A stretch of 62,399 nt of DNA, filler included, from Hausera hauseri (lineage: Eukaryota): NCBI GenBank assembly GCA_046269625.1. It is 13 parts of 13 records of this genome, joined end to end, with 100 filler letters (N's around TTAATTAATTAA, not from the genome) between each part and the next. Parts side by side here need not be neighbours in the genome. Positions count along the whole stretch, not along the records: positions 33,116 to 37,575 come from JBJURY010569450.1; 12 more parts are not named here. One strand, written 5' to 3'. The first letter of the stretch is position 1, and every line of letters begins with the position of its first letter. The notes below the pieces were generated by a model, which saw only the letters and a program-made list of their open reading frames with translations, was not told where the DNA came from and did not search any database. Positions 33,518 to 37,575 of this stretch are shown here, piece after piece. The position numbers were made by a program, and so were the translations under genes.

Positions 33518-36500
33518 ATGGTGTCAGAATTTCCACTCTTTTCGGATGAAAGAGAAGCAAAGATCATGGAGCGTTTACAGAAAAGTTCAAATGCGTCTTT
33601 CATTCAACTTTTGGATTATCACGTGACATCAGTCGATTTTGCACTAATTCTGCAGTTTGCATCCGGCGGTTTGCTTTACAATGTCGTACTCGACCCCAAA
33701 ATTGGTCTACCGGAAGCCTACGTTAAATTCGTTATTGCTAAAATGATGTCGTCTCTTCATTTGTCGCACGTTAACGATATCGTCCATTTTGATTTAAAGG
33801 CTTATAATGTGCTTCTGCGATATTCATACCCGTCCACAGACAGCGCCATTTGTGATTTTTGTGTTACCAAAAAATTATCGAAATACCATGCTCAGAAGGA
33901 AATTGTTAGAATTCCGGATTACATGGCTTGTTTTATGAATCTATACTTGTTACATGAATCTATAGATGCAGGATATGGATTAAAGGAAGCATTTTCATTC
34001 GTTGACTTGAAGTACCAATTAAATGACTCAACAACGGCTGATGTTAATTTAAATTCACTTGATAATTTTACTACCAGTCTATCAGAATCCTTCAAAATCG
34101 ATATTCTACCATGTGAAAGTAATTTTATTTTACTAATTTACTTTACTTTTGTAATGAGTTCCACAAAAAATTTTAAATTCAACCAAGCACAATTTATTCA
34201 TATATTGACTAGAGTTTCTAACTATTGTTCATCGGAAACTTCAACAAAAACCATTCAAAAATTCCGACTAATTGAGAAAAACAAACCGTATCAACCTGTC
34301 GATATTGCCACAAGTATAAAACATTTACGTTCCGATGCATATTTTCAAGTTTATGGGGATATACCGGTCTGGTTTTATTACCGACGGCATTTCAAAGGTT
34401 CTTCAGCTCCAAAGAATACGAGAGAAATTTGTGTGAAAAACGGTATTTTACGACACAAAAATGCCTGTCCATTATATCGGGATAATCATTTGTTCATCGA
34501 TCGACGGTCCGGAGAAGTATTTCCGACCAAGTTCACTGGCATTTGTCAACAGCAATTCGAACAAGTGTTATTTAATGCTGAAATTGCATATCAGTTAGGT
34601 CTAATTGAAAGACCAGTTCCGTTCAGATTGTATGGCTATACGGAATTCATGCTAATCGCTGAAAATATGGGCAAACAACAGGAGTACGTCGGCATTGAAA
34701 AATCCGGTATGGTTTATTCTACTTATAAAGACATTGGCCTTTTATCTGTAAATATTTGTCCTGATGACCTTGCGCACATATTTAAAGTTGTCCGAGATAC
34801 CTATTACAAAATCGAATTAATAAAATTAGCAAAAAGTCGAGGACTGCGTGTAATATGTGAAGTTGCTCCACATCATTTCTTTTTAACTGAGAACTTTTTA
34901 TCATCTGGTCTCAGTAATGTAAAATCATCTTTAGTAACCGCAGAAGATATCGAAAGTCTTTGGAACAATTTTGATGTCATTGATTGTTTTGCTAGAGATC
35001 ATGCCCCACATATCGTTGTCGAAAAGCAATCTGCTAATTCCCCTCGTGCATTTCCGGAATTAGAAACAATGCTACCATTACTGTTAGATGCACTTCGACA
35101 AGGACGCATTACACCCAAACAAATATCAGAAAAATTACGTATAGATCCACAACATATACTTACTTTACCACCATCTGAGCCATGTTTAAAAGACAATCAA
35201 AAGAACAGTAATATATCGTTTATAATGTCGGAAATAAACGGGATCGATAAGGATGAGAGTGAAGTAATCGTCCGAGATTTGAGTGCTTTGATCGTAGCAA
35301 TTTGTGTGAAATACAACAAGAATACATCAGCATCAATGGATGCCCAGTTCATTCTGCAGACAGTTAAACGAATTGTTGACAAAGACGTACTCATAGAATC
35401 CACCAATCACGTCACGAAAACGGAAGAGTATACGACAGCAATGCGGCATTTACAACCGCAGTTTAACAAAGCGTCGGACATTTTGTTTGATTATGAATCT
35501 ACCCGACTGTTCATATCCGTAAAACATAATGTCGTGGAGAATATCCATCGAATGACAACGGATAGTACGACCCGTGGTCAAATTCCCTACAGTATGAGGA
35601 GGACAACACAGTTTACAGAACATGAAAATGTAGTCCGGCAGTATAAGGATTTTATAAAGACTCAAGATGATGAGTTGCGTGTTCTACGATCAGAAATTGG
35701 TAAACGAGATTGTGAATTGAAGAGGCAGGCAATCATGATAGATAGATCGCGTGATGCGTTACAATCATACAAGGATCAATGTTCATTGTTGAAGGCTAAG
35801 AAACAGAACTCCAGTACTTGTGGTTTGCCTATTTTGTCAGATTCTTCTTCATCTATACTTATACAACAACAACAACAACAAATACTTGACAACAATAGTT
35901 ACGACAATACAATAAATGGTCTTCATCAACAATTGACGGACAGTTCTATACAGATTGAGTATCTAAAAAATTGCGAATCTGAAGCCAATCTATGGAAATC
36001 GAAATACGACGAACTTCACTCACTGTTCGAGATGACTAAACAACATATCCAAGAATATGAATCAACTACTGAAGTTCGACATTCGAAACTCGAATCAGAA
36101 TTGCAACGTCTGCATTTGGTGAATAATAATCTCCAACAAAACGCTGCTATGATAAAAAAACAATTTGATCAGTTAAAAACCGAACAGGAAGATTCGAACA
36201 GACAATTTCTATTACGCGATAATCTTTGTGCCGAATTAAATTTGGCCATTAAAAATTGTGGAGAATTCGGCAAACCATATCTCGATGGCGAACTCAAAGT
36301 TTTCATTTGCAAAAATATGCCACTAGTTTTGTTGGGCCAACGTGCTTTTTTACTTGCAAACAATCCGCCCACTGGGAGGTCTAGCGTTAAGCAAATGATT
36401 CGATGCAAAACAACGATGCTTTTCGAATACATTCCAAAGCAACCCCTTAGTCTTCATATTGTTCATAGTGAAAATTCAAACAACAAATTTACACTGCAGG

Positions 36501-37575
36501 CAATGGATTTGGAGTCGAAAGAGACATGGTATATAAAAATCTCATCTGAACTGGCAGTAGACAGCGGACCTACGGGTAATCTGTCAAGTTACATAAATCA
36601 CTCGAGCGAGTCAAACAGCACTGTCGAAAACGATCTACTGTATCGAATCGAATGGATGAGAACACAATATTCAGTTTCACCCGTCATTTCCTGTAGCAAC
36701 CAGAAAAGTTACGGTGAGAAATTTAAACTTTTATGTAACGACGAAAAATTATCCCATTTTACTTGCATTTTATTTAAAAAAGTTAAAACAAATTTCTATG
36801 CGGTTTGTGGTGATATTACTTTACCATCTCAATTGCTTCTTTGTACTCTAGATAAGATAGCGAACAATACCATTATATCAAAAGAGTTTTATAATCGATC
36901 TCGGAAACTTTCAGATAGCTTTCTAACCGTATCCAAGTTCATCTGTAAAAGTAACGACATAAATTATATCGACCGTAAATCAACACGCGACAGTTTCTTT
37001 CGGTACTACATAAAAAAATTCTTAACGAAGGAAGTAATCAAAGTACGTGAATCGCAAGACGATGACGTGCCGAACAGCGTGAACTGCGCATTCAATTATC
37101 GGGCAATGATGAATTCGTACCAGGAATATACGACGGCACCTTTCCGGGGAAACTCGGGTACCCCGTATTTTCGTGCCCGCCGTGCCGGGACGGAGATCCC
37201 GACCGCCAACCTTGCACCGGTCGGTCGGGGGGCACTTTCGACGCCGCTACCAAGTCATGCCCCCAGGCCCACTACTTTCCCCATTTCCTTTTTCTTTTTT
37301 TATAACAATACACACATACATACGGCCCACACAAAACATCTACACATTTCCACTCTTTACACCTGCATCTCTTCTTTCCTTGGGTCTGCCGATTTCTTTC
37401 TTACTTGTCACGGCGCTGTCATCCACCTTAACGAGATTTTCTCTTTTCCCAACCAAACTTGTTTCACCATACACCTCCGTATCCGTGGTGGAATGAATTC
37501 CCCACCAACAATCGACACCACGGATACATCTACCACCAAAAAATCCATACCTATCCTATATTGTTCTAAACCAAA
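33518..37575 (+). CDS. Mosaic open ORF (>1350 aa) of host-gene fragments: DRAK/DAPK-like kinase, MRPS18B, CAD dihydroorotase, USO1/p115, SET domain
   Basis: HFDLKAYNVLL..ICDF..PDYMA (33548-33928); YGDIPVWFYYRRHFKG..TREIC..ACP (34153-34650); CEVAPHH..DCFARDHAPH..FPELETMLPLLL (34811-35175); LSALIVAICVKYN..LQPQF..ILFDYE..KDQCSLLK..KTEQED (35200-36195); VDSGPTGNLSSYINHS (36520-36630). Confidence 0.7.

Follow-up and report, generated by a model that had tools for sequence, protein, structure and literature searches.

The retrocopies of several parent genes that long terminal repeat (LTR) elements mediate in animals bring partial, intron-free mRNA pieces of different genes together in one locus (Tan et al., 2016, PMC5131818). 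The mouse 'Super' retrocopy joins up to four genes and an Alu in this manner and secondary copies are known, and among older retrocopies 14 of 21 bear loss-of-function changes while the constrained ones show low KA/KS (PMC5131818). Here we analyse a locus of Hausera hauseri (GenBank assembly GCA_046269625.1), hereafter the mosaic, in which pieces of about seven host genes form a single open reading frame (ORF). It lies in a window of 62,399 nucleotides made of 13 unrelated contigs separated by spacers, and all coordinates refer to this whole joined stretch; the mosaic contig (JBJURY010569450.1) occupies positions 33116–37575, is 4.5 kb in size and is flanked by two assembly spacers. Like LTR-mediated retrocopies, the mosaic holds partial pieces of two or more parents in one locus and has a sister copy. 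It differs from those of Tan et al., which in the accessible part of the report have two to four parents and when old are usually broken, in what is new here: a frame that combines about seven parents and is open (dN/dS near 0.8) while its domains decay. The class is moreover defined by flanking LTRs, and none was found in the 4.5-kb contig. By analogy, the mosaic would work like LTR-mediated multi-parent retrocopies as a putative member of that class. It is a variant of a known process, surprising in its scale and in the contrast between an open frame and decaying domains. The mosaic allows selection on translation to be told apart from that on protein sequence, and offers a testable case both of how exon shuffling gives long open frames before any function and of whether captured coding sequence helps mobile RNAs to evade decay or silencing.

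Maize Bs1 has three parents. Its hybrid ORF, derived from several transductions of cellular genes into an LTR element (cited in PMC5131818 and PMC7264820), is like the mosaic composed of several host genes but, unlike it, belongs to a plant and sits inside defined LTRs. In Drosophila tinkering loci, dispersed gene fragments accumulate and give composite transcripts and chimeric proteins (Weisman, bioRxiv 10.64898/2026.08.09.743762); as far as the accessible text goes, these loci arise mostly by DNA-level recombination with shared flanks, their composite transcripts hold 2–4 proteins, and 4 chimeric transcripts have only two parents per protein. PZL-1 of Caenorhabditis tropicalis is an in-frame fusion of unrelated essential gene pieces, with three parents united by DNA duplication of neighbours, introns, a linked antidote and a function established by genetics (PMC12680543). 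The mosaic exceeds PZL-1 and the tinkering-locus chimeric proteins, as described in the accessible parts of these reports, in parent number. When the tinkering-locus traits (flanks, transposons) were sought, its pieces were seen to abut without transposon sequence, with one T-rich stretch before the MRPS18B piece.

Burro elements, giant Gypsy elements of planarians, carry host-like domains added in frame to a long ORF or as accessory ORFs, BIR and env-like domains among them (PMC6431247). Unlike Burro, the mosaic ORF contains no gag, protease, reverse transcriptase (RT), RNase H, integrase or env in Pfam and PDB scans, and its pieces are partial housekeeping fragments, whereas the domains added to Burro are described as intact apoptosis or ubiquitin domains; Burro-like elements do occur in contigs neighbouring that of the mosaic. 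Through Helitron and Pack-MULE capture, one element can accumulate several gene fragments that are not linked to each other, as many as nine in maize Helitrons, and captured fragments have been proposed to serve as camouflage from silencing (PMC6431247; bioRxiv 10.1101/777037). The ends of such elements were not found in the mosaic contig, and a single frame across all fragments is not described in the accessible parts of those two sources. In the open-access literature we found neither such mosaics in flatworms nor any report that captured ORFs protect against nonsense-mediated decay; larger in-frame cases may be present in the supplements to Tan 2016 and Weisman 2026.

An open frame across pieces of unrelated genes

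Translation of the plus strand from 33518 to 37573 gives 1,352 codons with no stop, still open where the contig ends, of which codons 1–1133 are the core common to a second sequencing run (X2, see below). The other two plus frames have 76 and 96 stops, and in 1,000 shuffles the longest ORF had a median of 95 amino acids (aa) and a maximum of 184. Elsewhere in the window the longest open stretches are 587 codons, in a microsatellite, and 488 codons for a coding contig. No second ORF of note is present on the 4.5-kb contig. The last 430 bases (37146–37575) are a separate high-depth repeat into which the mosaic frame reads.

The pieces, all on the plus strand, comprise four strong ones identified by PDB matches (DRAK kinase, MRPS18B, CAD dihydroorotase and USO1) and three weak ones below Pfam cut-offs (PH, SET and DUF3452). 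The DRAK/STK17-type kinase piece (33548–33931; aa 11–138; PDB E 1e-11) extends from helix C to the activation segment and covers profile positions 47–165 of 263, without the start of the ATP-binding lobe and without the C-terminal helices; its motif is DFC in the mosaic versus DFG in the sister copy. Lacking both the complete domain and DFG, it is predicted not to be an active DRAK kinase. A 63-nt in-frame stretch with a 19-nt tandem duplication (33925–33987), missing from the sister copy, leads to an in-frame linker (33988–34153) with no significant family match in Pfam. The last 35 nt of the linker (34119–34153), directly before the MRPS18B start, are T-rich and look like intron or untranslated region (UTR) sequence read in frame. 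The MRPS18B (mS40) piece (34154–34648), which matches over aa 265–368 in PDB (E 2e-11) and over aa 213–377 against flatworm proteins, is a nearly complete conserved coding region that starts at the likely native ATG and bears a 36-nt (12-residue) deletion at 34492. It is followed by a coding-like scrap (34649–34810) with no family match, and then by the C-terminal half of CAD dihydroorotase (34811–35182; aa 419/432–555; PDB E 2e-32). The latter covers chain residues about 151–288 of 354–393 in the PDB match and, being short of the whole barrel with all metal ligands, would not be an active dihydroorotase.

The head end of USO1/p115 and the start of its coiled coil occupy 35204–36256 (aa 563–684, E 5e-7; to aa 761–780 in further searches). 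The match reaches about 35857 and the remainder is coiled-coil-like, so that USO1 is the probable parent only up to 35857. Among the weak pieces, that of a PH domain (RhoGEF-type profile; 36257–36547; aa 914–1010; Pfam E 0.0006) gave a low-confidence model (pLDDT 44), whose best fold matches in one structure search were mostly PH-like at Z 4–5 and for which Foldseek returned no match. A SET-domain scrap (36545–36628; aa 1010–1037; E 0.005) has NSD2/NSD3 and SUVH4 as its best PDB rows, and the DUF3452 piece (36728–36868; aa 1071–1117; Pfam E 0.003), which we take to be a retinoblastoma-family domain, has no PDB match. The tail (36869–37145), without Pfam match, is open in the mosaic copy and frameshifted in X2, and its join to the terminal repeat is common to X2, other copies carrying different sequence before 37146. 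No tRNA genes were found. Upstream, the AT-rich 5′ flank (33116–33446, plus strand), with stops in all three frames, is multi-copy in the sequencing runs and has many non-triplet indels; it ends at 33446, 71 nt upstream of the ATG, in a pyrimidine tract with CAG resembling an acceptor for splicing or trans-splicing.

The initial annotation had described a stop-free intronless frame from at least five unrelated genes, unlike the other coding contigs in its openness, with a partial DRAK kinase lacking the N-lobe and reading DFC for DFG, an MRPS18B core with an internal deletion, the C-half of CAD dihydroorotase and a USO1/p115 head end with coiled coil, and all of this is borne out; the PH and DUF3452 pieces are additional. 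Its NSD-like SET fragment is retained as a weak SET match, with NSD2/NSD3 and SUVH4 as the best PDB rows. The M16-peptidase origin that it considered for the scrap at 34649–34810 finds no support: these 54–68 residues, a stretch short enough for a true match to be missed, match no Pfam family and no PDB M16 entry at E up to 10.

No protein other than the mosaic was seen to combine its pieces: none of the 159 proteins with an alignment matches two of them, and the best 150 of 2,077 representative protein matches each cover one piece only. Protein searches for a relative of the mosaic found none, yielding 5 CAD proteins, 1 dihydroorotase and nothing for aa 905–1210; a protein atlas search with aa 915–1135 gave no usable match, and a metagenome scan gave one weak, uninformative locus (L001). 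The named top MRPS18B matches were flatworms in 4 of the 4 looked up and a fluke is among the top CAD matches; the parent genes look flatworm-like and the host is itself likely a flatworm, with only the Burro-like neighbours pointing to a planarian. In three flatworm gene models (P0018, P0160 and P0161) MRPS18B is fused with MRPL14, which suggests that the two genes lie side by side or are transcribed together; we found no piece of MRPL14 in the mosaic.

Joins, copies and decay

Part of the stretch is contained in nine public sequencing runs from nine organisms (shares of 0.88 and 0.79 in two runs and 0.08–0.17 in X5–X9), all from one year and possibly from one campaign, with X1 possibly the source sample. 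No RNA source is listed among the nine, which has no bearing on expression. The join analysis is based on four of the nine (X1–X4), two of them repeated at lower stringency without the terminal repeat, and the difference tables comprise 40 of 141 and 40 of 95 rows. Listed contigs with at least 31 bases on each side bridge the joins at 34154 (X1), about 34650 (X1, X2, X4), 34810 (X1, X2, X4), about 35190 (X2), 36257–36716 (X1, X2) and 37146 (X2), and for the kinase join the bridge is found in the sister form. One X2 contig differs from the mosaic by 12 substitutions and 2 gaps in 1,681 bases (0.7%), and the X2 sequence is independent of X1. That the longest records reach 43–86 kb and that flank and repeat are covered suggests that the runs are of genomic DNA. 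The mosaic ORF is real genomic sequence: a predicted transcript included by artefact among the contigs, one possibility raised in the initial annotation, is rejected because contigs from runs of at least two organisms bridge the joins.

A sister form of 33116–34810 is present in X1 and X2, with its branch also in X3 and X4. It keeps DFG and the 36 bases deleted from MRPS18B, lacks the 63 bases after the kinase, and leaves the mosaic at the end of the scrap, 34810, into different sequence (X1, X3, X4). The first 431 codons hence occur with two different continuations, and the mosaic would therefore have been built or rebuilt in steps; further copies after formation, a trait of LTR-mediated retrocopies, are represented by this sister form. 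Depth over the second half, which is not a copy number, is 225 in X1 and 7.7 in X2. X1 depth is 445–556 at 36761–37030, against 225, and the DUF3452 piece and tail may also occur in another family. In the CAD part, low-depth pieces from X1 and X2 are about 10% different and could be the parent gene or minor copies.

The degeneracy and incompleteness of the pieces noted in the initial annotation are evident in 14 changes at 74 near-invariant columns (8 of 42 in CAD and 6 of 32 in MRPS18B). None of the 33 and none of the 46 homologues compared reach the changed fraction of the mosaic; named flatworm proteins have 0–2 of 36–42 such columns changed, and one truncated model has 3 of 29. Converted by simulation, this decay corresponds to about 7% neutral divergence, at which about 11 stops are expected in 1,133 codons (5.3 at the lower confidence limit, 3.3 at the harshest setting) and 0 are observed. 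The probability of no stop is then 2e-5 (0.005 at the lower limit, 0.04 at the harshest setting), an estimate in which decay is taken to be similar throughout the ORF and neither frameshifts nor in-frame joins are considered. Six joins would be in frame by chance with a probability between 1e-3 (frame only) and 2e-5 (same strand too). Listed indels are non-triplet in 8 of 9 cases in the 402-nt flank, and in codons 1–1133 only those of 63 and 36 nt are listed. The 34 listed copy differences comprise 24 replacement and 10 silent changes, with dN/dS 0.83 (0.38–1.93), and the amino acids of the mosaic look nearly free to change. From the stop deficit and the triplet indels we infer selection on the frame. 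That the frame was kept open while the pieces decayed suggests selection on translatability more than on the original functions of the pieces, and selection for the open frame probably acts on RNA more than on protein.

Template and origin of the mosaic

MRPS18B gene models of a tapeworm (Hydatigera) and a fluke (Fasciolopsis) break at two positions inside the MRPS18B piece, of which the mosaic copy reads through the first and the sister copy through the second. Among 81 CAD matches printed, 4 break inside the CAD piece, which reads straight through, and 3 break in intron-like fashion exactly at its start, the branch point of the sister copy; on a rough estimate, a join would be expected to fall on such a position a few percent of the time. 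Because introns seen in other species are missing and one join is at an intron position, a spliced-RNA origin may be proposed, and these signs favour spliced RNA as the putative template, with at least one join at an exon edge. Many matches start at residue 431, but taking this for an exon start proved mostly wrong, as the start reflects where the homology of the mosaic begins. The pieces abut, all on the same strand and with no transposon sequence between them. The Helitron or Pack carrier suggested in the initial annotation loses ground: no terminal inverted repeat pair or matching ends were found in the contig, although the true ends may lie off it, and the MRPS18B introns of other flatworms are absent. 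Both contig ends are repeated in the runs, with no direct repeat between them.

The explanation that we favour, at a little short of even chances, is that the mosaic was built stepwise from spliced mRNA pieces of about seven host genes, copied back into DNA and kept open by selection on translation. Directly observed are the joins in more than one organism, the common strand and frame, the sister copy with another second half, the lost conserved residues and the lack of a stop. Host mRNA pieces would be added to a transcribed unit having its own ATG and the acceptor-like site at 33446, either by template switching during reverse transcription or by splicing and subsequent reverse transcription, and the enzyme would probably be an LTR-retrotransposon RT, as suggested by the Gypsy/Burro-like elements that fill neighbouring contigs. 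Selection for translation of the RNA to its end would eliminate additions that break the frame. Nonsense-mediated decay is an established pathway, and an RNA translated nearly to its end would, in a putative step, escape it and so be recopied more often, which would favour each in-frame capture and let the amino acids drift. Why an open frame pays is the least certain part of the explanation; selection on RNA translation is favoured because no piece is a complete enzyme and residues drift. More doubtful is the general proposal that this flatworm lineage runs a frame-preserving stitching of genes, in which a retroelement-borne RNA would add or swap host mRNA pieces and retain only additions that are in frame, since it would persist only if translated to its end, yielding families of kilobase-long polyproteins of dead domains as a source of new genes or selfish factors.

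Several points weigh against a spliced-RNA origin with selection on translation. In the 4.5-kb contig we found neither an LTR nor a primer-binding site nor a convincing polypurine tract. Intron loss and junction microsimilarity are deduced from other species and not from parent genes of the host itself, one fish model and two other records supply the three CAD breaks, and aa 420–426 weakly resemble CAD, less so in the sister copy. The indel probability of 1e-5 is overstated, the flank being homopolymer-rich and the rows coming from few contigs; zero stops among the 34 listed changes alone has a probability of 0.2 (listed rows only), and the dN/dS interval permits moderate protein constraint. 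The X2 copy has a +1 insertion at 36912 that leads to a stop at codon 1134 (read by hand), hence the tail is not always kept, and in the CAD part one X1 piece of low depth contains 2 gaps whose sizes are not listed.

Selection may instead have acted on the protein of a locus of RNA-mediated origin. Such a locus would be a gene of the host or a selfish one, young and changing quickly, and might encode for instance a toxin or decoy built on the USO1 coiled coil and the dead domains, like PZL-1. We consider this rather unlikely: PZL-1, a three-gene chimera, does act as a toxin (PMC12680543), but no linked antidote candidate is present on the 4.5-kb contig and no mosaic piece is a complete active domain. 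The mosaic does have its own ATG, the upstream acceptor-like site and an open frame common to two organisms and two copy families, which fits such a gene, yet its second half is swapped in the sister copy and truncated in X2. The dN/dS interval of 0.38–1.93 is compatible with mixed purifying and positive selection, and all 13 listed differences in MRPS18B and the scrap are replacements (a post hoc observation), against which stands the loss of conserved residues at a near-neutral rate. The retrocopied chimeric transcript and the real fusion gene of the initial annotation both remain, and they are not mutually exclusive.

Gathering at the DNA level, by Helitron, Pack-TIR or ectopic recombination at a tinkering locus, would require that the pieces were joined by splicing and the spliced form later copied back, or that the parents have long exons. 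Long exons would agree with two unannotated USO1 matches, unbroken for 125–138 codons in other genomes, and a join at an intron position and the T-rich intron- or UTR-like stretch retained at 34119–34153 also fit; ectopic recombination dominates in Drosophila tinkering loci, according to the accessible text (bioRxiv 10.64898/2026.08.09.743762). We nonetheless judge this route improbable, given same-strand, abutting pieces with no terminal inverted repeats and no transposon sequence between them, and the absence of the neodermatan MRPS18B introns. It is less probable still that the mosaic is neutral junk, dead and open by chance: dN/dS is near 1, the X2 copy is broken near its end and the probability of no stop is 0.04 at the harshest setting, but six same-strand in-frame joins by chance (1e-3 to 2e-5) would have to coincide with the stop deficit and triplet-only indels. 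An assembly chimera, or a predicted transcript among the contigs, can be dismissed as very improbable, for although no single listed piece covers the whole stretch and the mosaic's own form of 33925–33987 is absent among the pieces shown, independent X2 contigs, which bear substitutions of their own, also span these joins, X3 and X4 pieces span some of them, and the contig ends are non-coding flank and repeat.

Terminal repeat and neighbouring contigs

The terminal repeat (37146–37575) has no Rfam family above threshold, no Pfam match and no similarity elsewhere in the window. In its first part (37146–37305), which shows no significant fold (z −0.46), another frame is open over a short cysteine-rich stretch and the GC-rich core differs from copy to copy; a single 12-bp hairpin lies further on at 37479–37527.

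Most other contigs of the window are decayed retroelement or Polinton-like pieces; Pfam scans of 12 ORFs detected RT and RNase H as well as a BIR domain, a type-B polymerase and fusion glycoproteins in two ORFs. At 4090–10115, a broken ORF that resembles a decayed Burro-like element encodes a BIR domain (Pfam E 1e-8) and, after it, coiled-coil and RS/RD-rich repeats. Monjiviricetes-type fusion glycoproteins occur in retroelement ORFs at 1788–3251 (minus strand) and 44638–45453 (plus strand) by Pfam and at 57504–58957 (minus strand) by eye, all interrupted by stops or frameshifts, and a broken protein-primed type-B DNA polymerase (Pfam E 5e-8) at 38941–39777 is Polinton-like. Two contigs with retroelement-like integrase pieces (47113–57402) include several ORFs without Pfam match (48287–49078 and 54473–55201 among them), possibly accessory genes of a large element. 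Finally, a 4.3-kb TC-rich microsatellite contig with gaps (15095–19392) yields spurious long ORFs.

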